Assembly (NCBI GenBank): GCA_964491475.1
Contig: CAZBFO010000001.1
Location: 8,605-72,604 of the forward strand
Source: an uncultured Gammaproteobacteria bacterium
GTDB taxonomy: Bacteria; Patescibacteriota; Patescibacteriia; SG8-24
Reading direction: 5' to 3'
DNA: 64,000 nt
Below are positions 857 to 47,874 of this stretch, one piece after another. The stretch's first letter is position 1. Every line of letters starts with the position of its first letter. The notes under the pieces are model-generated. The model was not told where the DNA came from. It did not search any database and saw only the letters and a program-made list of their open reading frames with translations. The position numbers and the translations under genes were made by a program.

Positions 857-867
857 CCCTTTTGCCA

Positions 868-8192: not shown

Positions 8193-9971
8193 TTGATGCG
8201 GCGGTCACGGCGGCCTGCCGCAATGGTTATGCCAGAAAGCGCAACCGGAAACCCGATGATCGACTTGTTGGTGCAGTCCGGCCGCATCACCGCGGAGCAG
8301 TTTCGCGCCTACGAGGCCGAAGCCGCTGCCGCCGGGAAGCCGGTCGACGTCCTTTTGGTTGAGAAAAAGGTGGTCGACGAGGAGACCATGGCAAAGGCCA
8401 AGGCCGCGCAGCTCGGCCTGTCGTATGTCGATTTACAGGGCAGGGAAATCAAGGCGGAAACGCTGAACCTGATCCCCAAAAACGTCGCCGAAACCAACAA
8501 GGCGGTCCCTTTCGACCGCGACGAGGCGCACGTGAGCATCGGCATCGTCGATCCGCGCGACGCTCGCGCCATGCAGGCCATCGACTTCCTCGCCCAGACC
8601 GTCGGGTTCAGCCCCAAGTACTTCGTGATTTCGACGGCTTCGTTCAACGGCGCGCTCAAGAAGTACGCCACCATCGGCAAGGACGTGGCCGGAGCGCTCG
8701 AGGCGGCCAAAGAGCGCTTCGTCCCCGAAAAGAAGGTGGCGGTATCCGAGGAACGCATCGAGGAGGTCATCAAGGGGGCGCCCGTGTCGCGCATCGTCTC
8801 GGTCATTCTCCGCCACGCCGTCGACGGCGGCGCCTCCGACATTCACATCGAGCCGTTCGGCGAAGAGACTCGCGTCCGCTACCGCGTCGACGGCATGCTC
8901 CGCACCACCCTGACGCTGCCCAAGTACATCCATGCCTCGCTGGTCTCCCGCGTAAAGGTGCTGTCCAACCTCAAGCTGGACGAGACCCGCGTGCCGCAGG
9001 ACGGCCGCATCACCGAGAACTTCAGCGGCAAGGTGATCGACTTCCGCGTTTCCACCATCCCGCTGGCCGAAACCGAAAAGGTGGTGATGCGCATCCTCGA
9101 CACCACCCGCGGCGTGCCGACGCTCGAGCAGCTGGGCTTCCGGCCGCAATTCGTGGAAATCATCAAGCAGGAAGCGCGGAAGCCGCACGGCATCTTCCTC
9201 ATCACCGGTCCGACCGGCTCCGGCAAATCGACCACCTTGCTGACGGTGTTGAGCATGCGCAACGAGGAGGGCGTCAACATTTCCACCCTCGAGGACCCGA
9301 TCGAATACTTCATCAAGGGCGTCAACCAGTCGCAGGTGCGTCCCGAAGTCGGTTACACCTTCGCCAGCGGCCTCCGCGCGATGCTGCGCCAGGACCCGAA
9401 CGTGATCATGGTCGGCGAAATCCGCGACGGCGAGACCGGCGAGCTGGCCATTCACGCCGCGCTCACCGGCCATCTCATCTTCTCGACTCTGCACACTAAC
9501 GACGCCCTGGGCGTGGTGCCTCGCATGGTCGACATGCACGTGGAGCCGTTCCTGCTTTCGGCGACGCTCAACGTGGCCATCGCCCAGCGCCTGGCGCGCA
9601 AGATCTGCGAACGCTGCAAGGCGCCGACGACGCTGCCGCCGGAAATCGAGGAATCAGTCCGGGAGGAAATCGACGCCATCCCGGAAGTCTACAAGACCCA
9701 TCTCGACCTCGCTGCGCCGAAGCTGACGGTCTACAAGGGCATGGGGTGCGTGCGCTGCGGCAATAGCGGCTACATGGGCCGGGTCGCCTGCGCGGAGATG
9801 ATCGTCTACGATGAGGAGCTCCGCCTGCTGATTACCAAGGGTTTTCCCTCGGAGCAGGTCAAGAAAGAGCTGGTCAAGCAGAATGCCATCACCTTGCGCC
9901 AGGACGCTCTCTTGAAGGCTTTGGAGGGTTCAACTACAATTGAGGAAGTCATGCGGATTACCGCCGAATAA
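8193..9971 (+). CDS. pilB: Type IV pilus assembly ATPase PilB (GspE family)
   Basis: N-terminal GSPII_E-N-like domain, Walker A GPTGSGKSTT, Asp/His boxes, and the tetracysteine motif CERC...CVRCGNSGY. The start could be an internal Met (MIDLL...). Confidence 0.9.
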   Translation: MMRRSRRPAAMVMPESATGNPMIDLLVQSGRITAEQFRAYEAEAAAAGKPVDVLLVEKKVVDEETMAKAKAAQLGLSYVDLQGREIKAETLNLIPKNVAETNKAVPFDRDEAHVSIGIVDPRDARAMQAIDFLAQTVGFSPKYFVISTASFNGALKKYATIGKDVAGALEAAKERFVPEKKVAVSEERIEEVIKGAPVSRIVSVILRHAVDGGASDIHIEPFGEETRVRYRVDGMLRTTLTLPKYIHASLVSRVKVLSNLKLDETRVPQDGRITENFSGKVIDFRVSTIPLAETEKVVMRILDTTRGVPTLEQLGFRPQFVEIIKQEARKPHGIFLITGPTGSGKSTTLLTVLSMRNEEGVNISTLEDPIEYFIKGVNQSQVRPEVGYTFASGLRAMLRQDPNVIMVGEIRDGETGELAIHAALTGHLIFSTLHTNDALGVVPRMVDMHVEPFLLSATLNVAIAQRLARKICERCKAPTTLPPEIEESVREEIDAIPEVYKTHLDLAAPKLTVYKGMGCVRCGNSGYMGRVACAEMIVYDEELRLLITKGFPSEQVKKELVKQNAITLRQDALLKALEGSTTIEEVMRITAE

Positions 9972-10411: not shown

Positions 10412-11617
10412 ATGCCACGATTTGAATATCACGCGCGGGACCCCAAAGGTCAGGCCGTCGAGGGCTTGGTCGAAGCCGACACCCTGGACATCGCCACCGA
10501 GACCCTTAAAGACAAGGGTCTCTTCGTGCTCTCCATCGATATCCACAAGGAGTCGGTGACCCAGTATGAGATTCCGTGGCTGAACCGCGTCGGTGCCAAG
10601 GATTTGGTGATCTTTTCCCGCCAGTTCTCGGTGCTGATGGGCGCGAAGGTGCCCTTGGTGCAGGCGTTAAGGACCACTGCGCGGCAGACGCAGCATAAGA
10701 GCCTGCAACGGATCATCTTGGACATCGCGTCCGACGTCGAGGCGGGAACCTCGATGTCCGTGGCCATGGCCAAGCACCCGCAGGCCTTCAGCTCGTTCTT
10801 CATCAACATGATCCGTTCGGGCGAGACCACCGGCAAGCTCGAGGAAATCATGAACTACCTGGCAGACCAGATGGAACGCGACTTCGACCTGATGACCAAG
10901 ATCAAGGGCGCGATGACCTACCCCATCTTCGTCATCGTCGCCATGACCGTGGTCGGCTTCGTCATGATGGTGTACGTGGTCCCCAAGCTGACCGCCACCC
11001 TGACCGAGTCGGGCACCGCCTTGCCGTGGACCACGAAAGCGCTGATTGCCGTGAGCGGTTTCATGCAGTCGCACGTGATTCAGATCGTCATCGGCGCGGT
11101 GCTGTTCGCCGCAGCTTTCCGTTGGTGGACTTCCACGCCCGGAGGTCGCGCCTTGTGGGATCGCATCAAATTGCGTGCCCCGGTGTTCGGCCCGCTGCTG
11201 CGCAACATCTACGTCGTGCGCTTCACCCGTTCGATGTCGACGCTGCTGTCCGGCGGCGTGGACGTGCCGCAGAGCCTGGACATCGCCGCGGACATCGTCG
11301 GCAACGAGTACTTCCGGCAGATCATCATGGAAACCCGCAAGGAGGTGTCGGACGGCAATTCGATCACGAGCGTCTTCATGAAGAGCAGCATCATGCCGGT
11401 GATGGTGCCGCAGATGATGTCGGTCGGCGAAGAAACCGGCCGTCTGTCCGAAGTGCTGGAACGCCTGACCGGGTTTTATTCTCGCGAGCTCTCCAACAGC
11501 GTCGCCAACCTGGTATCGGCCATAGAGCCGCTGATCATGCTGGCGATGGGCGGTGCGGTAGGCATCATGGTGTCCGCCATCATGCTGCCCATGTACAACA
11601 TGGCCAGCAACATGTGA
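10412..11617 (+). CDS. pilC: Type IV pilus inner-membrane platform protein PilC (GspF family)
   Basis: Two GspF repeats, three TM segments, and a typical N-terminus (FEYHARDPKGQAVEGLVEADTLDIATETLKDKGLFVLSI). Confidence 0.88.
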   Translation: MPRFEYHARDPKGQAVEGLVEADTLDIATETLKDKGLFVLSIDIHKESVTQYEIPWLNRVGAKDLVIFSRQFSVLMGAKVPLVQALRTTARQTQHKSLQRIILDIASDVEAGTSMSVAMAKHPQAFSSFFINMIRSGETTGKLEEIMNYLADQMERDFDLMTKIKGAMTYPIFVIVAMTVVGFVMMVYVVPKLTATLTESGTALPWTTKALIAVSGFMQSHVIQIVIGAVLFAAAFRWWTSTPGGRALWDRIKLRAPVFGPLLRNIYVVRFTRSMSTLLSGGVDVPQSLDIAADIVGNEYFRQIIMETRKEVSDGNSITSVFMKSSIMPVMVPQMMSVGEETGRLSEVLERLTGFYSRELSNSVANLVSAIEPLIMLAMGGAVGIMVSAIMLPMYNMASNM

Positions 11618-26650: not shown

Positions 26651-26765
26651 GGCCAATTTCGACCATTCAGAAGGCGGGGATATCTCTGGGGCTGACTGCT
26701 TGTCGGTATCTCGACGGTCGGGTAAGGTCGAAAAAGTCGTAAGTTCTTTGCAAAAGGAGAAACCC

Positions 26766-27275
26766 ATGCAAGGCAAAAGCCTGTTCCTGCGCTGGACGCT
26801 GTTCATGTGTCTGGTGGTCATCGCCGCGTTCATCGGCCTCGCCCTCGGCGGGGGCGATCACCTCGCGAGCGACCCCACGCACATCACGTACCTGACGCTG
26901 ACGGTCTTCGCGCTCGCATCCCTGTGGTGCGGCCGCTGCGCGTGGAAGCTCTCCAACGGCAGCGATCCGACGGCGGTCGAGGAAGACCTGGCCCACGGCT
27001 GGTTCGCCTCGAGCCTGTGCGTCACCATCGGCCTGATCGGCACGGCCGTCGGTTACTACATCATGCTCAAGAACGGCAACGCCAGCGGCGACCCCAGCGA
27101 GGTCATCCGCAGGGCTTTCGCCAACACCAGCATCGCCATCGTCAACACCATCTTCGGTGCGGTCGGCGGCGCGCTGGTGGAGCTGCAGAGCCATTTCGTC
27201 GGCACGGCCGTCGCCAAGGCCAAGCGCCTGGCGGCCAAAGACGCCGAAGACGCCGAAGAAGGCGAGAAGTCATGA
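26766..27275 (+). CDS. Minimal MotA/TolQ/ExbB-family proton-channel-like membrane protein
   Basis: ATG at 26766 is preceded by AAGGAG. Four predicted TM segments. TM3 GLIGTAVGYYIM resembles the GLLGTVxG signature of ExbB/TolQ. Only about 169 aa. Confidence 0.5.
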   Translation: MQGKSLFLRWTLFMCLVVIAAFIGLALGGGDHLASDPTHITYLTLTVFALASLWCGRCAWKLSNGSDPTAVEEDLAHGWFASSLCVTIGLIGTAVGYYIMLKNGNASGDPSEVIRRAFANTSIAIVNTIFGAVGGALVELQSHFVGTAVAKAKRLAAKDAEDAEEGEKS

Positions 27276-27880
27276 AGCAGCGCCCGCAGCTCTTCGGCAA
27301 GACCCTGTTCGTGGACCTGATGATGAGCACGCTCGTGGTCATCACGGCCCTCCTGATGGCTTCCAACGCCGTCGAGAAGAACAAGAAGCAGGTCGAAGAG
27401 GCCGGTCTCGCCACCGAAGGGAAGTTCGCCGTCATCATGGACTGGCCGAACGACTCCGAGGACGACGTCGACCTCTACGTGCGCGACCCCAACGGCAACA
27501 TCGCCTTCTTCCAGGGGCGCGACACCGGACTGATGCACCTCGAGCACGACGACCGCGGCGTTCGCGGCGACAAGGTCACGGCCAACGGCAACACCGTCGC
27601 CGTCGACAAGAACGAGGAGCGGACCATCATTCGCGGCATCATCCCCGGCGAGTACACCGTGAACGTGCACATGTTCAGCAAGCACGGACGCGGCGACGTG
27701 CCGGTGACGGTGCGTCTGGTGCGGCTCAAGGGCATGGACGCCGACGTGATTAACCGCGTGCGCGTGCTGTCCCGCAATGGGCAGCAGGCGACCGCCTTCC
27801 GCTTCACGCTGGCCGAAGACGGGTCCGTTTCGGACATCAACGAACTGCCTGCGTCTCTCGTGGGCGAAGGAGGTCGGTAG
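27272..27880 (+). CDS. ExbD/TolR-like single-TM protein with unrelated C-terminal domain
   Basis: The start overlaps the previous stop (ATGA). The N-terminus KTLFVDLMMSTLVVITALLM resembles the ExbD/TolR TM, including a TM Asp. The C-terminal roughly 160 aa have no recognised motif. Confidence 0.4.
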   Translation: MKQRPQLFGKTLFVDLMMSTLVVITALLMASNAVEKNKKQVEEAGLATEGKFAVIMDWPNDSEDDVDLYVRDPNGNIAFFQGRDTGLMHLEHDDRGVRGDKVTANGNTVAVDKNEERTIIRGIIPGEYTVNVHMFSKHGRGDVPVTVRLVRLKGMDADVINRVRVLSRNGQQATAFRFTLAEDGSVSDINELPASLVGEGGR

Positions 27881-27882
27881 CC

Positions 27883-28497
27883 ATGGAAGACAGGACTCTG
27901 GCGATCCCCGTCGCCTTCATCCTGCTCGCCGCTCTGCTCTGCTGGATGCTCATCGGCGCCAAGGGAAAGTGGTGGCTCAAGCTGCTCACCATCCTGATCG
28001 TGCCGAGCTTCGGCCTGGCCGTCTGGGCGTCGATTTCCAGCTACAAGGGCTGGCCCACGACCGACGAGCCGCCGGAAAAGGCGCTGCTGGTCTGGGGCGT
28101 CGTGCACGAGCCGGACCCCCGCACCGGAAATCCCGGCGTCATCTACCTGTGGCTCACGCCGATCAGGGAAGACAGCGGCGGCACGCTCAATCCTCTCGGG
28201 TACGAGTCGAGAAACGGCGAACCGCGCGCGTATCGGCTGCCGTATTCGCGGCAGCTGCATGACGCCTTGACCGGCGCACAGGCCGCTGCCAAGGAAGGCC
28301 GTCCGATGATGTTCGGCAAGGGCAAAAGGGGCCGTCGCTCCGACGGCTCGCGGCGCGAGGAGGACGGCGAACCCGTCGAGGGCGAAGGCGACGCTCGGCC
28401 CGGAGGGGTCGGCGGAGCCCGCGGCGACGGAGAGCGAGAGCAATATCAGTTCTACGATCTTCCGCCGGCTGCCCCGTTCAAGCCGAGCGAACAGTAG
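27883..28497 (+). CDS. Hypothetical 2-TM membrane protein with Gly/Arg/Glu-rich C-terminal tail
   Basis: Starts 3 nt after the previous stop. Two N-terminal TM segments. The C-terminus is charged low-complexity. Confidence 0.45.
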   Translation: MEDRTLAIPVAFILLAALLCWMLIGAKGKWWLKLLTILIVPSFGLAVWASISSYKGWPTTDEPPEKALLVWGVVHEPDPRTGNPGVIYLWLTPIREDSGGTLNPLGYESRNGEPRAYRLPYSRQLHDALTGAQAAAKEGRPMMFGKGKRGRRSDGSRREEDGEPVEGEGDARPGGVGGARGDGEREQYQFYDLPPAAPFKPSEQ

Positions 28498-28503
28498 ACC
28501 CGA

Positions 28504-28532
28504 CCCGTCTCATGATGAGGCGGGTTTTTCAT
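28504..28532 (+). terminator. Rho-independent terminator
   Basis: CCCGTCTCATGATGAGGCGGG + TTTTTCATT. Confidence 0.5.
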
Positions 28533-28601
28533 TGGCTTGCCGTGTTGACGCGAGGCGCATTCGGTGTTACGGTGGCGTTCGGTTTCTGCAAGGAGAACAG
28601 G

Positions 28602-29756: not shown

Positions 29757-31115
29757 CTAGAGCGCGTTCGCTTGCTCCACGCTCTCGGGATGCTTGCCGG
29801 ACGGATCGGTGTGGCCGGCGCCGAGCGCCTCGCCTGCGGCCTTGAGGCCGTCGCGCACTTGCGTCCAGGTCGATCCAGGATGCGACTTGATGTACAAGGC
29901 GGCGCCTCCTGCCACGTGCGGGCTGGCCATGCTGGTGCCGCTGATGGTGCTGTATCCTCCGGAGAGCCAGGTCGATCGGATGTTCACGCCCGGCGCGCCA
30001 AGGTCGACGATCGAACCGTAGTTGCTGAAGGTGGCGAAGGTGTCGTCCTTGCCGTACGAAGTGGTCGGGCCGAGGCCTCCGGACTTGCCGTCGGAGTCGG
30101 CCAGCGCCGAGACGGTGATGACGGCGTCGTCGTAAGCGGCAGGCACGGAAGTGGAGGCGTCGGCGGTGGAGTTTCCGGCGGCGACGACTATGGTCACGCC
30201 GGCGTCGCGAGCGCGGCAGATGGCCTTATGCAGGGCGTCGCCGTTCTTGTTGCCACAGGCGTTGTCGCTGGTGCCGGCACCGCCGAGAGACAGGTTGGCG
30301 ACCTTGATGTTGTACTTGGCCGCATTCGCGGTGACCCAATCAATGCCGCAGATGACCTGGGACCAGGTGCCGGAGCCGCTGCTGTCGAGCACCTTGACCG
30401 CCGCGAGCTTCGCCTGCGGCGCGACGCCGACGACGCCGATGGCGTTGTCCAGCGCGGCAATGGTGCCGGCCACGTGCGAACCGTGGCCGTTGTCGTCTTG
30501 GCCGGTCGTCTTTCCCTTGACGCAGCTGCTGTTGGCGACGATGTTGGCGGCGAGGTCGGGATGCGTCAGGTCGATGCCGGTGTCGATGACGGCGACGCCG
30601 ATTCCCGCGCCCTTGTTGGTCAGCGCGGTCGCCTTGATGCGGCCGATGCCGGTAGGCAGCGCCTGCGTCGGCTGTGCGGCGGCCACGGCTTCAGTCTTCG
30701 CAGCAGTGTCATGCATCACGAGCGCCTGCACCATGCGGTCCTCGCTCACGAAGGCCACGCGGGGATCGGAGGAGACCTGCGCGAGCTTGTCTTGGGAGAT
30801 CGTCGCGGCAAACCCCTTCATGGAGTGCCGGTAGGACTGCAGTGACCCGAGACCGTGCTTTTTTACCAGGTCCTGTTCCGCGTTGTCCGCGTCCGACACG
30901 TCATCCTTGAAGACGACGATGTATTGGCCCGGCACCTTGTCGTCGCCTCTGTCGGATCCGGGCGGGGCGTCTTTCTTCGGCTGCGCGGCGGCGGCCGGCG
31001 ATACCGCCTGTAATCCGCCCGTCGAATCGAAGGCGGAAGGACCTGGCGAGGAAGAGCAGCCGGCTCCGACCAGGAGCAGCGCGCCGACCGCCATGACGTG
31101 CACGAATCGTTTCAT
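29757..31115 (-). CDS. Subtilisin-like S8 serine protease (lipoprotein signal, I9 propeptide), paralog 1
   Basis: MKRFVHVMAVGALLLVGAGC lipobox. Catalytic D (VAVIDTGID), H (DNGHGSHVAGT) and S (GTSMASPHVAG). Confidence 0.85.
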   Translation of the reverse strand: MKRFVHVMAVGALLLVGAGCSSSPGPSAFDSTGGLQAVSPAAAAQPKKDAPPGSDRGDDKVPGQYIVVFKDDVSDADNAEQDLVKKHGLGSLQSYRHSMKGFAATISQDKLAQVSSDPRVAFVSEDRMVQALVMHDTAAKTEAVAAAQPTQALPTGIGRIKATALTNKGAGIGVAVIDTGIDLTHPDLAANIVANSSCVKGKTTGQDDNGHGSHVAGTIAALDNAIGVVGVAPQAKLAAVKVLDSSGSGTWSQVICGIDWVTANAAKYNIKVANLSLGGAGTSDNACGNKNGDALHKAICRARDAGVTIVVAAGNSTADASTSVPAAYDDAVITVSALADSDGKSGGLGPTTSYGKDDTFATFSNYGSIVDLGAPGVNIRSTWLSGGYSTISGTSMASPHVAGGAALYIKSHPGSTWTQVRDGLKAAGEALGAGHTDPSGKHPESVEQANAL

Positions 31116-31315
31116 ATGGTCATGAAATTTAGTGTTCGTAAACTCCTCCATCGTACACCGCGTTTGCCCCTGCCGCAACGGCCGGTCACGCCACGGAGTG
31201 CGCCCGCGCACGCAAAAACAAAACGTCCCGTTGAGGACGTTTCGTCACGGCGACAAGGCCCTACCGCCGTCCCGCGTGCCCAAAGGCATCGGAGTCGAAC
31301 GGTAAGAAGCTGTCG

Positions 31316-31403
31316 TGGCGGAGAGGCAGGGATTCGAACCCTGGATACCTTTCGGTATACTCGCTTTCCAAGCGAGCGCACTCGACCACTATGCGACCTC
31401 TCC
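31316..31403 (-). tRNA. tRNA-Ser(GGA)
   Basis: The reverse complement folds as GGAGAGG-U-CGC-AUAGUGGUCGAGU-GCG / CUCGC-UUGGAAA-GCGAG / long variable arm / CAGGG-UUCGAAU-CCCUG / CCUCUCC-G-CCA. Anticodon is GGA and CCA is encoded. Confidence 0.85.
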
Positions 31404-31544
31404 GTGGGCGTGGCCGATTGTTGGTGCATAGTACCCGAATTGCCGCCAAATGCAAGAGTGATTGACCTGCAGGGCTTTTTGTGCTTATATGGCCGGTCGG
31501 GGATGCCTCGGCAAGAGGTGCTCAACGACGAAAGGAGGCCGAAA

Positions 31545-32366
31545 ATGGCCGCATCAGGGCAAAGTTTCATCAGCATCATCAGCTACAACGTGCTGTGCGA
31601 CGCCTACATCAGGCCCGAGTTCTATCCCAAGTGCGATCCGTCGGCGTTCCTGCCGGAGCGCCGCCATCCGTTGCTCTTGGACCGCATCGCCGCATTCTAC
31701 ACCGACGTCATCTGCCTGCAGGAGGTGGACGCCGCGATGTTCGACCGGGTGCAAAAGCGCCTGCAACCGCAGCAATACGTCGGGCATTGGGCGAAGAAAG
31801 GCGCGGGCAAGCCCGACGGCTGCGCCACCTTCGTTCGTCTCCCGCTTGAGGGGAAGCGCAGGGGCCTTCTGGTGGCCGGGTACGACGTCCATTCCTACGA
31901 GGATGGCGACGGCACTCGTGCCGCATCAGGCCATCTGCTGCAGAACACCATGGTGGTCACGCCGGAAGGCCGCGCCGTCATGGTCATCAATACCCACCTC
32001 AAGTGGGACCCGCCCGCAGCCCCGTCAGAAAAGCGCGTGGGACTGGCGCAGGCGAGGCAGCTGGCCGCCATGCCGGCGTCGCCGACGGCCACGATCATCT
32101 GCGGGGACTTCAACGCCGAGCACGGCAGCGACGTCATGAAAGCGCTGGCCGAAAAGGGCTACCAGGACGCGCACCTGACGGCCATGGAGCCGACCTGCAT
32201 GCCCGATGGCGAGCTCAAGAAGATCGATGCCATCCTCTGCAACGACCGGCTGCTGGTGCACGATTTCGGCACCACCCCTCTCTGCCCGCAGGCGCCGCCG
32301 CCGTCGACGGATGAACCGTCGGACCACGTGCCGATAGGCGCCACGTTGGTCACCGTGGCCTACTGA
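31545..32366 (+). CDS. Endonuclease/exonuclease/phosphatase (EEP) family protein
   Basis: ATG after AAAGGAGG. Motifs ISYNVLCDAY, DVICLQEVD, GDFNA and SDHVPI. Confidence 0.75.
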   Translation: MAASGQSFISIISYNVLCDAYIRPEFYPKCDPSAFLPERRHPLLLDRIAAFYTDVICLQEVDAAMFDRVQKRLQPQQYVGHWAKKGAGKPDGCATFVRLPLEGKRRGLLVAGYDVHSYEDGDGTRAASGHLLQNTMVVTPEGRAVMVINTHLKWDPPAAPSEKRVGLAQARQLAAMPASPTATIICGDFNAEHGSDVMKALAEKGYQDAHLTAMEPTCMPDGELKKIDAILCNDRLLVHDFGTTPLCPQAPPPSTDEPSDHVPIGATLVTVAY

Positions 32367-33556: not shown

Positions 33557-35773
33557 TCATTCACTGTCGATGCGCAGGAGGCGGTAGGGGTCGATGTGAC
33601 CTTGCTCGTCGCCGACTTCGGTCATGCCTTCGTGCGCCAAGTTGGCGATGTCGATGGCCATTAAGAGCGGGTGGTCGGGTATGATCTTCCTGATGGCCTC
33701 GCGGAGTTCCGCCAGATCCTTTGGCCGTGAGGCGGTATCAAAGAGGTAGTGCCTGTTGTCGAGCAGCTCGGGATGCCGGGCCAGGCTTTCCTGGTAGACG
33801 TACGCGGGCATCAGCACTTTTCCTTTGGTCTTGCCGTAGAGGAGATAGCCGTCACGGTCCACCCGTTTGCCGTTGTCCTCGCCCTTATAGAAATAATTCA
33901 TGTTCGGCATGACGACCGTCTTGTCGTCCGGCATGTCGCGGATGACCTCGGCGACTTTCTCGAAGTCGCCGAGAGACACGTCGCTGATGTCGACGGTTCG
34001 CCGCCCTTCTCCCGAAAGAATCGCGCGCAGGTCGTCAGCGTCCACCTCTCCCGTGTACTTGGTGTTGTCCTTGCCGAGTTCCAATTTGATGCTGGGAAGG
34101 TCTGCGTTTCCCTTCGTTTCGGCGCTAAAGCCGCGGAGGAAGGCTTCGGAAAGGCGCCCTTGCTGGCCCATCGCCACGGTGATGCTGCGATTGCGGTTTC
34201 GCAGCGCCTGGCTTACGGCCTCGGGTCGCCAATTCTCCATCGTGCCATAATTCACGCGCCAGGCTCTTCTGCCCTCGGCGCTGTCGGGGAGAGGCTCGTC
34301 GAAGACGGCAACGGTCTCGGGCGACGGGGCATCCAGGTCTCTCGCGTCCACGGAGACGGAGTTTTTGGACCTCGCTCCCGTCCACGGATCGACCCTCTCC
34401 AGCCGCGGCGCGCTCTGCAGGCGAAGTCGGGCGCCGGCAGGATCGACGTCGACAAGAATCTCGATCTCCGTCACCTGGCCTTCCAGTTTCTTCTCCTGCT
34501 CTCGGGAAACGGCGATTTGGGCGGCGATTTGCTCGTCGGTCATCTTTTCCGGCTCCAGCCCCTCGCGCTTTGCCTCCTGCATGACGAATTCCGACCCCTT
34601 CAGTTTTCCCACAACCCTGACGTTCAGCTTGGCCGGTTCGTCTGTGACGACGTCGATGTCCGCGCTGTTTTTCACTTCGCCGGGGTTGCCCGCCGCCTTC
34701 GCTTCGACGGGCTTGCTGCTGACCAGCGCCTTCTTGACCTCGGTCATCGGCAACGTCACCGTGCCGGGTTCTGCCTCGGTGCCTGCCCACTTTCTGGTGT
34801 TGCCGCCCTCGAGGATGTAGAGCGCATCGCGATTGCCGTTGTCGTCGAGGTGCTCGACCGCCGCCATTTCGTGCTGCTTCACCATTTGCGTCGCCGGCCG
34901 CCAATGGACGCGCTTCTCCGGCGGCAGGTGCGCCAGCACGCCTTCCATCACGATGCCCTGCGCGCGTGAGATGGCCACGCAGTTCCTGTCGCCGCCGTTG
35001 AAGTAGCGCGTGGTCGAGGCTTGCTCCCACTTGTACGACGAGTCAGGTCCGTACATTTCCGTGCTGATGCGCTTGATCTCGTCGGCGGTCAGGTCGTCGC
35101 CGACTTCTGACGAATACTTGGCGATCATCTCGTCGGCGCGTTTCTCGGCAGACTCCACTTCGGCTGCCGGTATGCCGCCGAGTTTTTCCAAATCAAACTG
35201 CATCCGCTTGAGCGAGGGCGGTTCTCCGCCCTCCAGACGCTTGGCGGCCTCGGTTTTGTAAGCCTCGCGTGCCGCCGCGTCGACGTTTTTTCCCCGCTCG
35301 GCGACCCTGGCGCTGACCTGCGCCTGCTGCTCCTTGCTCTGCGGGTGCAGCACCATGTGCTCCTTCTCCCAGGTATTCTTTACGGATTCGGCAATGGCGT
35401 GGCCGGCGGACTCAATGGCGTTTCCGACGCGCTCGTTCAACGGCAAATGCAGCGCACCGGCCACCAATAGCGGCTTGGCCAACGGGTGCCGAGCAAGCCT
35501 TTTGAGCAGGCTTTGCTTCGGTTCCGTCACCGTGTTTTCCTGGATGCGTTTCTTGGAGGCTTCGCTGACGTCGCCTAGCGCTTCTTCGATTTTTTGAACG
35601 GCGGAATCAGCTTCGGCCTGCCTGGCGGCCTGCTGGGTGTCGATCGCTTCGATTTGAGCCGCAATATCTTCCGCAGACAACTGTTCTTGGGCTGACTCCG
35701 AATCCTGCGGCTGCTTGGGCACCTCGCTCTTTTCGGCTGGCGTTGGCGGAAGCTCTCTTTTCTTGGGGAACAT
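33557..35773 (-). CDS. Large hypothetical protein (738 aa), coiled-coil/charged N-terminus
   Basis: Long uninterrupted minus-strand ORF in a region otherwise coded on +. The ATG at 35773 (MFPKKRELPP) is preferred. No catalytic motif recognised. Confidence 0.55.
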   Translation of the reverse strand: MFPKKRELPPTPAEKSEVPKQPQDSESAQEQLSAEDIAAQIEAIDTQQAARQAEADSAVQKIEEALGDVSEASKKRIQENTVTEPKQSLLKRLARHPLAKPLLVAGALHLPLNERVGNAIESAGHAIAESVKNTWEKEHMVLHPQSKEQQAQVSARVAERGKNVDAAAREAYKTEAAKRLEGGEPPSLKRMQFDLEKLGGIPAAEVESAEKRADEMIAKYSSEVGDDLTADEIKRISTEMYGPDSSYKWEQASTTRYFNGGDRNCVAISRAQGIVMEGVLAHLPPEKRVHWRPATQMVKQHEMAAVEHLDDNGNRDALYILEGGNTRKWAGTEAEPGTVTLPMTEVKKALVSSKPVEAKAAGNPGEVKNSADIDVVTDEPAKLNVRVVGKLKGSEFVMQEAKREGLEPEKMTDEQIAAQIAVSREQEKKLEGQVTEIEILVDVDPAGARLRLQSAPRLERVDPWTGARSKNSVSVDARDLDAPSPETVAVFDEPLPDSAEGRRAWRVNYGTMENWRPEAVSQALRNRNRSITVAMGQQGRLSEAFLRGFSAETKGNADLPSIKLELGKDNTKYTGEVDADDLRAILSGEGRRTVDISDVSLGDFEKVAEVIRDMPDDKTVVMPNMNYFYKGEDNGKRVDRDGYLLYGKTKGKVLMPAYVYQESLARHPELLDNRHYLFDTASRPKDLAELREAIRKIIPDHPLLMAIDIANLAHEGMTEVGDEQGHIDPYRLLRIDSE

Positions 35774-35879
35774 ACGCGAAAATACTATCACGTGCGCTTT
35801 TATGATGGAGATGGTCTGTGGATAACCGGGCATTTTCGAACGATGTTTGTGCGAAGACGGTCCAATGCCGTCTTTTTTG

Positions 35880-42964: not shown

Positions 42965-44581
42965 ATGAGCGTGCACATTCATCGTTTCCCGTGGGGTTTC
43001 GGCGAAGACGCGCAGGTATGGATCGTGCAGTTCGGTTCCAAATCGACGCCGCTCATCGCGCAGTTGTGCCGCGAAGTGACGCTGCGCAGCCGCATCGTTT
43101 CGTGGCAGGCGTTTCCGGAAGCGTGGCGTACCAAGTCAGCGACGCCGCGGCTGGTCATCCTGTCCGGCGGCGACCAAAGCGTCACCGATGCGGATGCGCC
43201 CAGTCTGCCGAAAGAGCTGTACCTTCAACTCGTGCGGGAGACGGTAGTGCTCGGCATCTGCTACGGCGCGCAGCTGTTGGCTCATTTTGGCGGCGGCGCG
43301 GTCCGCCGGGCAGAAAAGCCCGAGTTCGGCACCGTGAACGTCACGAGCAAGCCGTTCGGCAACTATTCCGGAGGTCAGGCGGTGATGAATCACCGCGATG
43401 AAATCGTGACGCTCCCCAAGTTCTGGGAGAGAATCGCCTCGACCGAGCGTTGCGCCAACGCCCTTTGCGGAGACCGCAACGTCTGGGCCGTGCAGTTCCA
43501 TCCCGAGATGGACCACACCGAGAACGGAGAGGCGATCCTGAATCACCTCGCTTTCGACATCGCACGGTGCCAGTCCGACTACGACTTCGACCCGAACGAG
43601 TACGTCGCGCGGTGCGGACAGTGGCTGACCGAAGTGGCGCCGCGGGGCGACGTGCTCTGCGGCCTGTCCGGCGGCGTCGATTCCGCAGTGGCCATGACGA
43701 TCGCGCGGCAGCCGCTGCGACGGCGGCTGCGCGGCATCTTCATCGATACCGGCTGGATGCGCGAAGGGGAGCTGGAAGAGGTCCGCTCCGTCTTCGGAGA
43801 CAAAGGCGTGGCCTACGAGCGCGCGGGCGAGGCATTCTACGATGCCGTCGAAGCCGTACCGTACCCGGAGGGCGGTACCGCCTCCGAAAACGAGTACCGC
43901 TACTACGACGCGGTGCGCAAGACCATCGGCCAGAAGTTCATCGACCAGTTCCTTGCCACCGCAAAACGGCTGTCACTGCGGCCGTCGGCGCTGATCCAGG
44001 GCACCAACGCCGCCGACATCGTCGAATCGGAGACCGGACTGAAGGCTCACCACAACGTCGGCGGGCTGCCGGCACGACTGGGCGTGGACATCGTCGAGCC
44101 GCTGGCCGGACTGTTCAAGTTCGAAATCCGCAAACTGGCGCGTGCGCTCGGCTTGCCCGAGAGCATCGCCGCGCGCCAGCCTTTTCCCGGCCCCGGTTTG
44201 GCCGTGCGTTCCTGGGGCAAGCTGACGCGCCAAGACGCGCCGCCTCTGGCTCGCGCCAACCGCATTCTGGAAGAGGTGATATGCCGGCATTGTCACCCGG
44301 CTCTTCGTCCAAGCCAGTACTATGTGGCCCTCGCCAAGTTTCCGAGCACCGGCATCATGGGCGACGCGCGGGTCATCGGCTATTCTTGGGTCGTCCGCAT
44401 GGTCACCTCGCGGCAACGTGAAAGCTACAGCACGCTCGGCGTCTTTCGTCCCAGCCCGGAGTGCCTCGACGAGCTGGCGCATCGGCTGACGACGGAAGTC
44501 ACCATGCCCGACGGCACCCCGTTCGTTCGCGTCTTCTACGAGATCACCGGCAAGCCTCCGTCGACGACGGAGCCGCACTAA
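42965..44581 (+). CDS. guaA: GMP synthase (glutamine-hydrolysing)
   Basis: ATG after AAGGAGG. GATase (GICYGAQLL, VQFHPE). PP-loop SGGVDSAVA. HHNVGGLP. C-terminus ...FYEITGKPPSTTEPH is like the GuaA dimerisation domain. Confidence 0.88.
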   Translation: MSVHIHRFPWGFGEDAQVWIVQFGSKSTPLIAQLCREVTLRSRIVSWQAFPEAWRTKSATPRLVILSGGDQSVTDADAPSLPKELYLQLVRETVVLGICYGAQLLAHFGGGAVRRAEKPEFGTVNVTSKPFGNYSGGQAVMNHRDEIVTLPKFWERIASTERCANALCGDRNVWAVQFHPEMDHTENGEAILNHLAFDIARCQSDYDFDPNEYVARCGQWLTEVAPRGDVLCGLSGGVDSAVAMTIARQPLRRRLRGIFIDTGWMREGELEEVRSVFGDKGVAYERAGEAFYDAVEAVPYPEGGTASENEYRYYDAVRKTIGQKFIDQFLATAKRLSLRPSALIQGTNAADIVESETGLKAHHNVGGLPARLGVDIVEPLAGLFKFEIRKLARALGLPESIAARQPFPGPGLAVRSWGKLTRQDAPPLARANRILEEVICRHCHPALRPSQYYVALAKFPSTGIMGDARVIGYSWVVRMVTSRQRESYSTLGVFRPSPECLDELAHRLTTEVTMPDGTPFVRVFYEITGKPPSTTEPH

Positions 44582-44582
44582 A

Positions 44583-44622
44583 AGGCGCTAGCCCCCCGAC
44601 GTACGTCGGGGGGCCTTTTTTG
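44583..44622 (+). terminator. Rho-independent terminator after guaA
   Basis: GCCCCCCGACGTACGTCGGGGGGC + TTTTTT. Confidence 0.6.
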
Positions 44623-44640
44623 TGGCCCGCTGTCTTAATC

Positions 44641-44668
44641 TTGCATATTTTTAGAAGATTGCTACACT
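44641..44668 (+). promoter_or_regulatory. Sigma70-like promoter (TTGCAT-16nt-TGCTACACT) for the intron-containing tRNA
   Basis: -35 TTGCAT at 44641-44646. Extended -10 TGCTACACT at 44660-44668. About 24 nt upstream of the mature tRNA 5' end. Confidence 0.45.
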
Positions 44669-44698
44669 GTGGACACCTCAAATCAGAGAGGCCCATAT

Positions 44699-45037
44699 TC
44701 CGAGGTAGCTCAGTTGGTAGAGCAGAGGACTGTCAAACTGACATGGCCTGCAAAGGTCAAAGCGGACCCGTCGCGCGAGCGGCGGTCAGGCAGCGCCCCG
44801 CGGTAACGCGAGGATGTAAAACTGGGTGAATTCGGCGAACGTTGTCCAACCAACGCCGAGCCAAGCCTCGCCACAAGCGAGGAAGGTGTAGAGACTATCC
44901 CGCAAGGGAGTAGGGGTCCGAGCAATCGGACTTCGAAGCGCCCGGCCCCGCCGGCAACAGCCGGAGGGTGATGACATAGTCCAGTAGTCAGAACTGTAAT
45001 CCTTTGGTCCTGGGTTCGAGTCCCAGCCTCGGAGCCA
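44699..45037 (+). tRNA. tRNA interrupted by a group I intron in the anticodon loop (mature 76 nt; Asn(GUU) favoured, Asp(GUC) possible)
   Basis: 5' half TCCGAGG-TA-GCTC-AGTTGGTA-GAGC-A-GAGGA-CTGT.. and 3' half ..TAA-TCCTT-TGGTC-CTGGG-TTCGAGT-CCCAG-CCTCGGA-G-CCA. The acceptor, D, anticodon and T stems pair perfectly across a roughly 263-nt insert. Confidence 0.8.
44734..44996 (+). ncRNA. Group I self-splicing intron (approximate boundaries)
   Basis: The intron core contains an R-like GUAGAGACUA (44888-44897) and an S-like GACAUAGUCC (44973-44982) able to form P7. Under the boundary choice used here, the intron ends in G (omegaG 44996) and the 5' exon ends in U. The terminal CUGAC...GUCAG can pair. 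The exact junction is ambiguous by up to 3 nt. Confidence 0.65.
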
Positions 45038-45043
45038 TGAAAG

Positions 45044-45082
45044 ACGCGCGTCATTTTGACGGGCGTTTTTCATTTGTGTCGC
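45044..45082 (+). terminator. Terminator after tRNA
   Basis: GACGCGCGTC/CGCGTCATTTTGACGGGCG hairpin region followed by TTTTTCATTT. Confidence 0.4.
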
Positions 45083-45240
45083 GCCAACCTTTTCAGGTTC
45101 GAACGGGACGCTCTCCGCACCGACTGAAGACGTTTTAATCGCGCTAAGGGAGGCACGTAAATTACTGTTATCGCCGCGTGCGCCTGTGAAGATTCATTTC
45201 GCCGGATAGACAAATTGACTAATTCTCCTAAGATGACAGC

Positions 45241-45813
45241 ATGGAACCCCTGAAAACAGGTCCCGATACAAAAATAATTGCCTTCATGCTTGCAATCGGC
45301 AACGCACGTCAATCGTATATTTTGGCGCGCCTTGGTTTATTGGAGGCCTTATTTGTGCCCTCATGTTTGTTGGCGCAGCAGAGTTTAGAATACTGCATCA
45401 AGGCCACTGCCAGAATATATTGGCATGAGATTGAAAGCAGGACTGGGAAAAAGATTGATAGGTTTTTGGAAGGTCATCACCTGGTCTCCTTGATGAGGCG
45501 AGCAGCGCCTTATGTGCCCCAGTACAATGCGATTCTTAATGACCACACTAAAAAAGAATTTTTGAAAGAACTGTCCGAAGTCTATAGATCTTCTCGTTTT
45601 GGAGAGACCGGTCTTAGCATCGATGGTCAGAAGAGCATAGGACTCCTTGACGATCTGTTCGCGACCTTGTTTCAAATTTATCGAGACTGCCTGAAGTTTC
45701 CGAAATACAAGCTCTTTGTCCCAAAAAATCTGCAAACTGCATTTTTATTTGGAAATGCAAATTTTAAAACCGAGGATATATCACACAATATTCTTGAAAC
45801 ACTCGGCTCATAG
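45241..45813 (+). CDS. Hypothetical protein encoded in low-GC islet
   Basis: 190-aa ORF in AT-rich DNA (the rest of the window is about 65% GC). No recognisable motif. Confidence 0.45.
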   Translation: MEPLKTGPDTKIIAFMLAIGNARQSYILARLGLLEALFVPSCLLAQQSLEYCIKATARIYWHEIESRTGKKIDRFLEGHHLVSLMRRAAPYVPQYNAILNDHTKKEFLKELSEVYRSSRFGETGLSIDGQKSIGLLDDLFATLFQIYRDCLKFPKYKLFVPKNLQTAFLFGNANFKTEDISHNILETLGS

Positions 45814-45965
45814 ACAGCCGAGCGCTGCCTTTGGTTTCCTTGGAAACACAACAAAAACCGCAAGAACAAAAGCTCGCGGCTACACTCTACGAATATTATA
45901 TTCTTGAAATCGAAACGACAGGCTCTTTGTCACCCGCTAGGCTTACACTTGAGCCTGTGGTCAAG

Positions 45966-46163
45966 ATGTGGTACACTGTTATCGATTATATAAGGCCATA
46001 TCTTATGCTCAAGCAGCTTAAAAAGAAGCCAATTAGCCATAAGCTCTTAATCACAGCTATTTCGCGATCTTCAAAGATTGAGGGTCTGAGTTTGAGTCGG
46101 GCGCTAAAGAATACTTCAGTTATTAAGAAACTTAGAGTGCATGGGCGAGCCTTCTCGTTATAA
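45966..46163 (+). CDS. Putative FicA/VbhA-like antitoxin (small protein with S-x-x-x-E-G inhibitory motif)
   Basis: The ORF is open from 45831. The internal start at 45966 gives about 65 aa. Contains SSKIEG, matching the [S/T]xxxE[G/N] Fic-inhibitory motif. Overlaps the Fic gene start by 23 nt. Confidence 0.4.
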   Translation: MWYTVIDYIRPYLMLKQLKKKPISHKLLITAISRSSKIEGLSLSRALKNTSVIKKLRVHGRAFSL

Positions 46164-46731
46164 GGTAAGTGACGATGATGCCGGCGTTGAAGGTGGAATT
46201 CTGATAAACAAATTGGGAATTAAGAATCAGAGAGACTTGGACGATGCCGAGACGTTGCTTGTTGCAGATTCGTATAAACATTTTTTTGAAGAGCTGGCGC
46301 AGGGAAAGATTACCTTTGATCTCTCCTTGCTTTTTGTAATCCATGCGTATTGCTTTGAGACACTGTATGCATGGGCTGGCAAAGTCCGGACCATTGACTT
46401 GTCCAAGGACGGGGTACTGTTTGCGAGTGCGCAATTTCTACCGGCAACCATAGGGGAGCTAAGAAACATTGTGACAGACAATTTCCCCCGAGGTTCTGAT
46501 TCTAAACGAACGATCGCCGAGAAACTCGCGCTGATCCACAATGAAATCAACATCGTACACCCCTTCAGAGAGGGGAACGGTCGAACCCTGCGTTTATTTA
46601 TTGATTTAATTGTAAACAGCCTAGATTTGCCCGCCGTGAACTGGGATGTTCCGAATTACCTCGACGAATGCAAGAAGGGCATAACGGGCGATAATTCGGG
46701 TATTGAGAAAATTATTCACGACAGCATCTGA
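46141..46731 (+). CDS. Fic/Doc-family protein (FicT-like AMPylation toxin)
   Basis: Canonical Fic active-site motif HPFREGNGRTLR, i.e. HPFx[DE]GNGRxxR. About 196 aa. There is no internal inhibitory helix motif. Confidence 0.85.
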   Translation: MGEPSRYKVSDDDAGVEGGILINKLGIKNQRDLDDAETLLVADSYKHFFEELAQGKITFDLSLLFVIHAYCFETLYAWAGKVRTIDLSKDGVLFASAQFLPATIGELRNIVTDNFPRGSDSKRTIAEKLALIHNEINIVHPFREGNGRTLRLFIDLIVNSLDLPAVNWDVPNYLDECKKGITGDNSGIEKIIHDSI

Positions 46732-46806
46732 GGATAAGGTCGTCGTCATTAAGTCATTGTGGGCAAAGAGGTCGAATAAAAAGCCCCGCTGCTATCATCC
46801 ACGCAT

Positions 46807-47256
46807 ATGCTTACCATCATCCTCCTTTCGCTCGGCGGCGCGGTCATCGCGGCAATTGTCGGCACGTTCTGGTATTCGAACGCCACTCCTATGGGGCGGC
46901 TGCACATGCGCTATCTCGGATTCGACAAGCTCACGGAGGCAGAGAAGAAGGCCAAGATGCAAGAGGGCAAGGCGATGATGGGCAAGATGTACGCCTCGCA
47001 GCTCGCGCTTTCCTTCCTCACCGCTTTCGCCACGGTCTTCATCGTGACCATGAGCATGCGCAACGGCCTGTCTTTCGGCGCTGCGCTCGGGTTCGTGGTA
47101 CTGAACTGGCTGTGCTTCGTCGTGCCGACTATCGGCCAGTCGATCCTTTGGGGCAACTGCGATCCGAAGATCGCCAAGATGAAGTTCGTTTCGGACAGCC
47201 TGTCGAACCTGGTGACGCTGCTTCTGGTCGCCGCGCTCGCCAGCGCGTTCGTCTAG
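46807..47256 (+). CDS. Small multi-TM membrane protein (DUF1761-like)
   Basis: Four hydrophobic helices. GC content returns to the genomic level. Followed by a hairpin+T-run terminator at about 47286-47325. Confidence 0.5.
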   Translation: MLTIILLSLGGAVIAAIVGTFWYSNATPMGRLHMRYLGFDKLTEAEKKAKMQEGKAMMGKMYASQLALSFLTAFATVFIVTMSMRNGLSFGAALGFVVLNWLCFVVPTIGQSILWGNCDPKIAKMKFVSDSLSNLVTLLLVAALASAFV

Positions 47257-47439
47257 GCCTTGGACTTGCCCGCTTGTCCGGAAAAGAGCAGGCCAGCAAA
47301 TTGGCCGGCTCTTTTTGAAAGCACGCGACGACATTTTTGTCCGGTCGGTTTTTTATCGAAACTGTAGTATTCTTTGCGGGATATGGTCGGTGCGGATATG
47401 TCGCCCGTTCCGACGGCATTCTCACGACCCGTTACGCCT

Positions 47440-47862
47440 ATGGCCGAACTAAGAATCCAACCCACCAAGAACTCCGTCGTCGCATTCCTCAAGACCGTCG
47501 AGCCTGCAGGCAAGCGCAAAGACGCGCTGACGCTCCTCGCGCTTTTCAAGAAGATCACCGGCCAGAAGCCGGTGCTGTGGGGCGCGTCCATCGTCGGTTT
47601 CGGCAGGTTCCGTTACAAGTCCGGCAGCAGCGAAGGGGAGTGGTTCCGCACCGGCTTCTCGCCGCGTAAAGGCAACTTCTCGCTGTACATCCTGGAGTGG
47701 CAGGCAAAGCCGTCGCCGCACCTCAAGAAGCTCGGCAAGTACAAGGCCGGCGGCGGCTGCCTTTACGTCAACAAGCTCGCCGACATCGATTTGAAAGTCC
47801 TGGCGCTTCTCATCAAGGAGTCGAGCAAGCGGAAGCATCGGAACGAAGTGCACGCATCTTGA
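47440..47862 (+). CDS. DUF1801/YdhG-like domain protein
   Basis: ELRIQPTKNSVVAFLKTVEPAGKRKDALTLLALFKKITGQKPVLWGASIVGFGRFRYK matches the DUF1801 pattern. The ATG at 47440 is preferred. Confidence 0.55.
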   Translation: MAELRIQPTKNSVVAFLKTVEPAGKRKDALTLLALFKKITGQKPVLWGASIVGFGRFRYKSGSSEGEWFRTGFSPRKGNFSLYILEWQAKPSPHLKKLGKYKAGGGCLYVNKLADIDLKVLALLIKESSKRKHRNEVHAS

Positions 47863-47874
47863 TCAAAAAAGCCT

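Follow-up and report, generated by a model that had tools for sequence, protein, structure and literature searches.

Membrane motors with a 5:2 architecture fall into few known classes, namely flagellar stators, the Ton and Tol systems, gliding motors and Zorya, and each of these classes has a clear client. The described systems closest to the locus reported here are TolQRA and ExbBD–TonB, which share its gene order of an A subunit, a B subunit and a third subunit (g1–g2–g3, comparable to tolQ–tolR–tolA). In the structure of TolQ5–TolR2–TolA2, Thr145 and Thr178 of TolQ form a polar ring beside Asp23 of TolR (PMC12215075). These residues are the pore threonines of the helix hairpin of this family, with Thr148 and Thr181 as their equivalents in ExbB, and the helices of TolA and TonB are bound at the periphery of the ring (PMC12215075).

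Here we examine three consecutive genes, g1, g2 and g3, located in a 64,000-nucleotide stretch of DNA (hereafter the window) from an uncultured bacterium, very probably a member of the Patescibacteria. The trio contains two partner proteins that are not seen in Tol, Ton or flagellar-stator systems. We found no described function for it, and full-text searches and papers provided no report of the trio in CPR bacteria (Patescibacteria) or phages.

Results and Discussion

The three genes constitute one compact operon on the forward strand. The features that carry the following analysis are listed by their position in the window.

26754–26759, + strand: Shine–Dalgarno sequence AAGGAG of g1, 6 nt upstream of the ATG, read from the sequence
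26766–27275, + strand: g1, open reading frame of 169 amino acids
27030–27053, + strand: g1 motif GLIGTAVG, residues 89–96, from alignments
27147–27149, + strand: codon of g1 Thr128 in the last membrane helix, aligned with TolQ Thr178
27272–27880, + strand: g2, open reading frame of 202 amino acids
27305–27361, + strand: predicted membrane helix of g2, residues 12–30, the single one of this protein
27314–27316, + strand: GAC codon of g2 Asp15, within the membrane helix
27419–27847, + strand: outer domain of g2, a predicted TerD/DUF2135/PPC-like beta-sandwich (AF2 model, acidic residues)
27867–27873, + strand: Shine–Dalgarno sequence AAGGAGG of g3, read from the sequence
27883–28497, + strand: g3, open reading frame of 204 amino acids
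28444–28482, + strand: C-terminal motif YQFYDLPPAAPFK of g3, residues 188–200, from conservation
28502–28526, with a T run to 28531, + strand: terminator-like hairpin directly 3' of the g3 stop codon; end of the operon

The original prediction had described three coupled genes at these positions. This description stands, including the ATGA sequence at 27272–27275 in which the stop codon of g1 overlaps the ATG of g2, except that the spacing between g2 and g3 is 2 nt (CC, 27881–27882) and not 3 nt. Public gene calls on a contig of identical sequence predict these three proteins as well, and the GC3 values of 0.83–0.91 in g1–g3 favor their reading frames. The terminator-like hairpin, detected by a pattern scan, comprises 11 pairs, six of which are G–C; as RNA it folds with −19.7 kcal/mol (z = −2.2). 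The gene following the operon probably starts at 28602 and is preceded by AAGGAG at 28590–28595. An open reading frame at 28512 was considered as a fourth member of the operon and rejected: its start falls within the terminator hairpin, it has no family matches, and its adjacency to the trio is not kept in other genomes. Type IV pilus genes are found about 15 kb upstream within the window.

The expectation that these genes form one module was borne out by the neighbors of their homologues. About 60 of 76 species-representative genomes and 39 of 48 viral contigs preserve the order g1–g2–g3, which also persists in CPR loci despite unrelated flanking genes. With the three genes kept together across dozens of genomes, the trio is not a chance arrangement. 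Its hosts are Patescibacteria, Gaiellales (actinobacteria), alpha- and gammaproteobacteria and bacteriophages, with a patchy distribution across phyla. Some carriers are in culture, among them the bacteria Maritimibacter alkaliphilus HTCC2654 and Azospirillum brasilense as well as Sinorhizobium phage 16-3; among isolated Rhizobium and Sinorhizobium phages, at least four rhizobiophage lineages, that of phage 16-3 included, encode the trio. In phage genomes the module lies among early and middle genes, in the temperate phage 16-3 it sits downstream of the immX immunity region, and lytic phages are also among the carriers. The CPR copies adjoin housekeeping genes (ribosomal proteins, EF-Tu, tgt/queA, ScpAB) and not defence islands.

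Since the trio occurs in CPR bacteria, actinobacteria, diderm Proteobacteria and phages, it is not a monoderm speciality. The earlier argument that a monoderm locus would offer no outer-membrane client to a Tol- or Ton-like energizer thereby loses force, given how common the trio is in diderm Proteobacteria and their phages. Across phyla, we found no fourth gene conserved beside the trio and no linked nuclease or other effector gene; in other genomes we found no linked pilus or flagellar gene. PADLOC matched none of five proteins tested (the trio and two downstream proteins), and the trio is not Zorya. No PHROGs family covers the phage copies; the only match there was at domain level, between g2 and phrog_1735 (function unassigned).

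The placement of g1 near MotA, ExbB and TolQ, first suggested by its GLIGTAVG signature, was strengthened by comparison with its relatives. The window protein itself scores 16.9 bits (E = 0.0056) against Pfam MotA_ExbB (PF01618), below the cut-off of 22.9, but 20 of 25 relatives match this model at E ≤ 0.01 (best E = 1e-14), and the Maritimibacter orthologue exceeds the cut-off with 31.5 bits. In a profile search against the PDB the top 10 matches are all MotA, PomA or TolQ and cover the same helix hairpin, with E-values of just 0.05–0.4. By alignment, g1 possesses the hairpin of the family with both pore threonines: Thr93 matches TolQ Thr145 as well as the threonine in PomA's GMIGTLVG motif, and Thr128 occupies the position of TolQ Thr178. 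In 94 sequences, G89, G92, T93 and G96 are conserved to 96–99% (T93 to 96%), T128 to 99% and G131 to 100%. These comparisons support the assignment of g1 as a minimal MotA/ExbB/TolQ member at the family level.

The predicted length of 169 residues is correct, and the predicted four membrane helices are likely: hydrophobicity indicates three strong segments (12–30, 83–101 and 122–140) and a weaker one (about 40–58), which would place both termini inside. In contrast to TolQ and ExbB, which have three helices and a large cytoplasmic domain, g1 probably has four helices and almost no cytoplasmic part; its cytoplasmic loops are short.

The second protein begins with a positively charged N-terminus and one membrane helix, from which a short linker leads to an outer beta-sandwich. 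It has 361 detected homologues and matches 1468 clusters at 50% identity (E ≤ 1e-10). The helix motif FVDLMMSTLVVITALLM (residues 13–29) contains Asp15, which is invariant in 43 CPR-type sequences and was also present in every one of 19 CPR-type and of 31 alignable viral sequences. The single helix and the conserved Asp had thus been recognized correctly. The proposed kinship with ExbD and TolR was not supported by sequence: the window protein has no match to ExbD (PF02472), TolR or MotB models, none of 43 members matches them at E ≤ 1, and a membrane-helix profile searched against the PDB returned a chance transporter match without ExbD, TolR or MotB. What the sequences do support is a resemblance to a B subunit, namely one membrane-spanning helix that contains a conserved Asp, as in TolR and ExbD, encoded by a gene coupled to g1.

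This Asp is not universal. In 19 Rhodobacterales sequences Ala stands in its place, and the versions from Rhodobacterales and Xanthobacteraceae-like bacteria have Ala or Val at this position. In 11 genomes with such Asp-less versions g2 stands alone, with no adjacent g1 or g3, which suggests that g2 can work without ion coupling at least in these lineages. A compensating Gln-to-Glu exchange at the end of the last g1 helix was considered and discarded, as the pattern is inconsistent across clades.

The outer domain of g2 had been described as novel and roughly 160 residues long. It measures about 140 residues (50–190), and its predicted structure is not a new fold. The AF2 model (pLDDT 85.6) consists of a helix (8–43) and a beta-sandwich (52–190) whose best structural matches are calcium-binding TerD proteins. 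Weak sequence matches to DUF2135 (PF09906) and PPC point in the same direction, although the TerD sequence model (PF02342) gave no match and Foldseek returned no PDB match for the g2 model at E ≤ 0.001. The domain contains six invariant acidic residues (D65, D67, D72, D93, D94 and E116) and has acidic loop motifs in common with TerD, DUF2135/YfaP and PPC sandwiches. We therefore assign it, from the model, to the TerD/DUF2135/PPC type of beta-sandwich, probably of the calcium-binding kind. TerD proteins are soluble and cytoplasmic, whereas the g2 domain is anchored by a membrane helix and is probably external. This sandwich takes the place of the periplasmic domain of ExbD and TolR, which is missing from the g2 model, as is an OmpA-like peptidoglycan-binding domain.

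As a pair, g1 and g2 also recall MotAB and PomAB in the family of the A subunit, in the probable arrangement of four helices with both termini inside, in the coupling of the A and B genes and in the membrane Asp of the B subunit. They differ in lacking a cytoplasmic torque-generating loop and the OmpA-like domain just mentioned, in being joined by a third subunit and in having no linked flagellar genes.

For g3, the two predicted membrane helices (6–24 and 34–52) were confirmed, but the predicted charged tail is only part of what follows them. The remainder comprises a folded ectodomain (about 56–146) with the strand order of an OB fold, a disordered linker rich in Gly and charged residues (about 147–185) and a C-terminal strand. 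In the AF2 model (pLDDT 70) we find strands at 66–75, 86–93, 115–120, 142–146 and 188–192 and a helix at 123–137, with the C-terminal motif forming the last strand of the ectodomain. This motif follows the consensus [FY]x[FY][ED]LPPPxLPxK with a PPxLPxK core and is shared by the versions from CPR bacteria, Gaiellales, Proteobacteria and viruses.

DUF4131, the N-terminal module of ComEC, is defined by a pair of membrane helices and an extracellular OB fold with predicted DNA-binding function (PMC5031224). According to the AF2 model, g3 fits this build, in that its two membrane helices precede an outer domain of OB-fold order. Sub-threshold matches to DUF4131 (PF13567) recur in 18 of 25 g3 members (E ≤ 1, best 0.005) and are colinear; the Gaiellales orthologue reaches 20.1 bits (E = 5.5e-4) over positions 7–146 of the 165 in the profile. 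The window protein scores 15.6 bits, below the Pfam cut-off of 31.6, and g3 profiles found no backing for this likeness in the PDB. We conclude that g3 weakly resembles DUF4131. It differs by its long disordered insert ahead of the last strand, by its own C-terminal motif and by the absence of a competence-channel or nuclease domain. The sole PDB profile match of g3, to the RNA-recognition motif of U1-70K, weakened when the profile was broadened (E = 0.02 before, E > 1 after) and was dismissed as chance.

Like TolA and TonB, g3 is membrane-anchored and combines an outer domain with a flexible linker. However, it has no Pfam or NCBIfam match to TolA or TonB and a different domain order, with two helices and an OB-fold-like domain in place of a single SHLS helix and a C-terminal domain. 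The trio also differs from Tol and Ton in having no outer-membrane partner and in occurring in bacteria that lack an outer membrane and in phages.

By analogy with these systems, we consider it somewhat probable that the trio forms a three-subunit complex in the cytoplasmic membrane, an ion-driven transducer of the 5:2 type that acts at the outer face. In such a complex g1 would form the ring and provide, with the conserved Gly and Thr motifs of its last two membrane helices, the ion pathway. Two copies of g2 would sit within the ring, where Asp15 could bind and release the ion; the calcium-type sandwich, placed about 20 residues beyond the helix, would lie near the outer face. On the exterior of the ring, g3 could be held by its two membrane helices in the manner of TolA and TonB and display its ComEC-like domain. 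Ion flow, perhaps by way of rotation, would then cause movement or remodelling at the outer face of the membrane, for which an outer membrane would be dispensable. Because g1 has nearly no cytoplasmic part, the work would be delivered outside the cell membrane. Most plausibly, its object is a component of the envelope or else a bound polymer, either DNA or glycan.

The same proteins could instead make up a gated ion channel or a membrane-stress sensor and not a motor, an explanation that we judge possible, if unlikely. Here g1 and g2 would provide a regulated proton or cation leak controlled by calcium or another ligand at the TerD-like domain; in cells this leak would serve envelope-stress responses, and in phages it would adjust the membrane potential of the host, for instance to time lysis or to bring about takeover. 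The calcium-binding nature of the closest structural matches of g2, the position of the phage module among early and middle genes, the lineages in which the Asp is lost or g2 stands alone, and the missing cytoplasmic domain of g1 are all consistent with this idea. However, the conserved residues are those by which TolQR and ExbBD convert ion flow into movement, and a simple channel poorly explains a third subunit whose ectodomain is conserved and whose C-terminal motif is tethered. Moreover, we know of no member of the MotA/ExbB/TolQ superfamily that is a plain channel.

Returning to an ion-driven transducer, the likeness of g3 to the extracellular DNA-binding module of ComEC raises two more specific proposals. 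One is that the trio represents a class of 5:2 motor new to science, common to CPR bacteria, actinobacteria, proteobacteria and tailed phages, in which the ion gradient is coupled to a ComEC-like outer OB-fold subunit that pulls, feeds or blocks a polymer, notably DNA. We think this clearly unlikely as it stands; if true, the motor would aid uptake in nucleotide-scavenging CPR bacteria and block entry in phage-infected cells. The other, which we find very doubtful, is protection against phage entry, as superinfection exclusion where the module is phage-borne and as a defence module where it is cell-borne. Incoming DNA would be intercepted with the help of the ion gradient and of a DNA-binding OB fold on the outside, a scheme compatible with the motor mechanism. 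The rhizobiophage lineages that carry the module, its location downstream of immX in 16-3 and its patchy spread would fit this function, but the negative PADLOC result, the housekeeping surroundings of the CPR copies and the absence of an effector gene linked across phyla do not.

The original suggestions of a Zorya-like defence or a motility stator (flagellar, gliding or pilus-linked) are extremely improbable: although g1 is weakly similar to MotA/MotP and ZorA models (E = 0.03–0.12, with NCBIfam ZorA_4 at 0.12), the trio resembles ZorAB as a MotAB-like pair of patchy spread outside motility, Tol and Ton contexts, and the window contains the pilus genes mentioned above, the trio matches no PADLOC or ZorA/ZorB model, lacks the long ZorA tail, ZorC/D and other effector genes and any peptidoglycan-binding ZorB/MotB domain, is unlinked to pilus or flagellar genes elsewhere and is carried by phages themselves, lytic ones included, while g1, with nearly no cytoplasmic part to push with, has loops too short for a torque interface.

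Conclusions

As an ion-driven transducer, the trio would add a branch to the 5:2 motors, one whose ring subunit is the smallest to date and whose two partner domains are unseen in the other branches. Since it is found in bacteria that have an outer membrane, in bacteria that lack one and in phages, its client should be one that all of these settings share, on the outer side of the cytoplasmic membrane. The existence of cultured carriers makes this function genetically testable, even though the window derives from an uncultured bacterium. If the connection to DNA holds, the trio would bear on the long-standing question as to how the ion gradient contributes to the transit of DNA across membranes.

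Gene Organization and Host

Three consecutive genes, here called g1, g2 and g3, are arranged head to tail on the + strand:

26766–27275, +, g1, ORF of 169 aa
27272–27880, +, g2, ORF of 202 aa
27883–28497, +, g3, ORF of 204 aa
28502–28526, hairpin and T run after the g3 stop

An AAGGAG stands upstream of g1, the g1 stop and the g2 start overlap in ATGA, and g3, with a separate AAGGAGG, follows after 2 nt rather than the 3 nt of the original prediction. With such small corrections the predicted trio was confirmed in place, together with its quoted motifs. GC3 is 0.83–0.91 in the three frames, and public gene calls on a contig of identical sequence agree on all three products. For the gene downstream of the trio, 28602 is a more likely start than 28512, where the mechanical ORF begins. 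Because the best g2 homologues are labelled Parcubacteria and Patescibacteria group, and because of the gene content of the window (tgt, queA, lgt, dnaG, rpoD, ligA and the type IV pilus genes pilB and pilC), the host is very probably a member of the Patescibacteria (CPR) with high GC. Other features of the window are:

8193–9971, type IV pilus assembly ATPase (T2SSE and MshEN)
10412–11617, platform protein (T2SSF)
29757–31211, −, subtilisin-like S8 protease with I9 propeptide
31316–31403, −, tRNA-Ser (GGA)
46141–46731, Fic/DOC family protein
47374–47862, DUF1801 protein
47875–49392, PAP2-LssY_C protein
58045–59487, +, subtilisin-like S8 protease with I9 propeptide

The pilus genes are located upstream of the trio, at a distance of about 15 kb, and no link between such genes and the trio was seen in other genomes. 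The Fic/DOC, DUF1801 and PAP2-LssY_C genes belong to a stretch of low GC (44000–48000; 0.53 vs about 0.63) that is possibly a horizontally acquired island. The tRNA is the sole RNA gene found in the window; since the mechanical 5′ extension of ORF 31098–32366 runs into it, the true start of this ORF is probably further downstream. Pfam at the thresholds used gave no match for the ORFs at 820–5088 (+, 1422 aa) and 33557–35833 (−, 758 aa).

Composition of the Trio

By itself, g1 scores 16.9 bits against Pfam MotA_ExbB, below the cut-off of 22.9, but its predicted kinship to MotA and ExbB is recovered at the family level: 20 of 25 relatives match the model (best E 1e-14), and the Maritimibacter orthologue exceeds the cut-off. 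The ten best PDB matches of the g1 family profile are all MotA, PomA or TolQ chains, and in each case the match falls on the last two membrane helices. Profile alignment to TolQ places Thr93 and Thr128 of g1 exactly on Thr145 and Thr178, which in the E. coli TolQ5–TolR2–TolA2 complex form a polar ring beside the essential Asp23 of TolR (PMC12215075). Residues G89, G92, T93, G96, T128 and G131 are 96–100% conserved in 94 non-identical cellular and viral sequences. Three of the four membrane segments originally predicted are strong, but the fourth is weaker; the distribution of charges suits a topology like that of MotA, both ends presumably being inside, and the cytoplasmic portions amount to just a few tens of residues.

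The g2 protein begins with a positively charged N-terminus and a single membrane helix containing Asp15, which is invariant in 43 CPR-type sequences and kept in every alignable viral g2. The proposed likeness to ExbD/TolR holds for this helix and for the layout, but not for family membership: models of ExbD, TolR and MotB matched neither the window protein nor any of the 43 members, and a profile of the membrane helix alone found none of these proteins. In its layout and in a single key residue g2 thus resembles a B subunit, yet it cannot be assigned to any of the three families. Its AlphaFold2 (AF2) model (pLDDT 85.6) comprises a helix (8–43) and a beta-sandwich (52–190), joined by a short linker of low confidence. 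Foldseek returned no significant match. Recurrent weak Pfam matches in the family are PPC (18/43) and DUF2135 (9/43), with one distant relative above the DUF2135 cut-off. The invariant acidic residues D65, D67, D72, D93, D94 and E116 fit a putative metal site.

The g3 protein has membrane helices at 6–24 and 34–52, and since the loop between them is positively charged, both ends are predicted to lie outside. Its AF2 model (pLDDT 70) contains strands 66–75, 86–93 and 115–120, a helix (123–137), a strand (142–146), a disordered Gly/charged stretch (about 150–183) and a final strand (188–192), in the model the element order of an OB fold. The final strand lies within the motif [FY]x[FY][ED]LPPPxLPxK, which is kept in viruses and in every phylum, while the preceding linker varies freely. 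The only recurrent Pfam match is DUF4131 (18 of 25 members, best E 0.005); a Gaiellales orthologue matches it with E 5.5e-4, colinear over positions 7–146 of 165. In ComEC, the DNA-uptake channel, DUF4131 makes up the N-terminal module. It has been described as two paired membrane helices joined to an OB fold that is extracellular and predicted to bind DNA, and it also exists in stand-alone form (PMC5031224).

Distribution in Cells and Phages

Five CPR loci share the order of the trio and differ in their neighbours (ribosomal proteins and EF-Tu; ScpAB; tgt/queA; EF-P). When one genome per species was scanned, 76 loci came up; about 60 of them have g1, g2 and g3 in order, which bears out the co-occurrence of the three genes. 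Carriers are Patescibacteria, Gaiellales, some Gammaproteobacteria and many Alphaproteobacteria, including the cultured Maritimibacter alkaliphilus HTCC2654, Flavimaricola marinus, Alexandriicola marinus and Mesobacterium pallidum; g2 also occurs on Azospirillum replicons in the plasmid database. The full HMM search gave 1468 clusters (50% identity, E ≤ 1e-10), nearly all of about 200 aa. No further gene conserved beside the trio across phyla was found.

In Rhodobacterales, a second alphaproteobacterial group (loci L033–L037) and a Gaiellales MAG, several other putative genes lie beside the trio. They seem to encode a PQQ-dependent dehydrogenase (with pqqB/pqqC in L035), a cytochrome c or cupredoxin, a pentapeptide-repeat protein and a secreted nuclease-like protein, the PQQ assignments having been made by eye from motifs:

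L035, 117–1056 and 6252–7918
L021, 1237–3281
L060, upstream of 3208

This PQQ-type link is absent from CPR genomes and phages. The sponge symbiont Ca. Spongiihabitans carries a variant trio (L082, 2834–5579) of a 264-aa MotA_ExbB protein (E 1.8e-8), a protein that combines a membrane Asp with a long coiled coil and the beta-sandwich of g2, and a third protein whose KRKAEA repeats are reminiscent of TolA domain II.

In 11 Xanthobacteraceae-like genomes g2 lacks adjacent g1 and g3 (L024, L025, L028, L029, L032, L038, L039, L041, L048, L064 and L065). In these copies, which have a Lys in the helix (FTVVLFKAL), and in Rhodobacterales, Val or Ala takes the place of the membrane Asp. Loss of the Asp in some lineages agrees, as does the TerD-like domain of g2, with a gated channel or sensor, a reading we consider unlikely; it leaves the conserved coupling residues unexplained and does not account for g3.

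Matches to g2 occur in 28–29 records of isolated Rhizobium/Sinorhizobium phages, from at least four lineages:

T4-like, about 155 kb (P10VF, RHph_N34)
RHph_I1_18, 171 kb
RHph_N3_13 type, 68 kb
16-3 group, temperate

In RHph_N34 and RHph_N3_13, g2 lies within replication genes between a g1 homologue of 141–148 aa (E 5.5e-15 and 3.7e-13) and a weakly g3-like two-helix protein. In phage 16-3, p038 (g1, E 2e-14), p040 (g2, 2e-28) and p042 (g3, 6e-9) are downstream of immX. A trypsin-like protease gene close to the trio in phage 16-3 (p036), RHph_N3_13 and the CPR locus L003 may be a coincidence. The phage trio genes have no PHROG family. In IMG/VR the complete ordered trio is present on 39 of 48 g2-bearing contigs, an upper bound since at least one contig (L100) looks cellular. 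By its g2 domain, the window groups with CPR, Gaiellales and three viral contigs, apart from the proteobacterial and remaining viral groups.

Proposed Function

On balance, with confidence little better than even, we regard the trio as an ion-driven 5:2-type complex whose three-part layout resembles that of Tol/Ton. We infer the 5:2 assembly, ion flow, rotation and a target: g1 would form the ring, g2 the inner dimer carrying the ion-binding Asp, and g3 a third subunit at the ring periphery. Work would be delivered on the outer side of the cytoplasmic membrane, because g1 lacks a cytoplasmic domain and the domains of its two partners are predicted to lie outside, near the membrane. Blocking of phage entry would be compatible with this mechanism and with the trio being phage-borne, but the CPR copies lie outside defence islands and we hold this role to be rather improbable. 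The originally suggested Zorya-like system or motility stator is very improbable: PADLOC gave no hit, and in other genomes no Zorya effector, pilus or flagellar gene is linked to the trio.

For an ion-driven complex, the occurrence of the trio in phages, and in bacteria whether or not they have an outer membrane, excludes a client in the outer membrane and favours a target common to all carriers. The most interesting candidate, speculatively, is a polymer such as DNA, because g3 resembles the DNA-binding module of ComEC. Full-text search found no literature on the trio; CPR bacteria go unmentioned in a 2025 survey of MotAB and its non-flagellar relatives. The trio is a known ring family combined with two partner domains absent from described systems, and its host range is unexpected.
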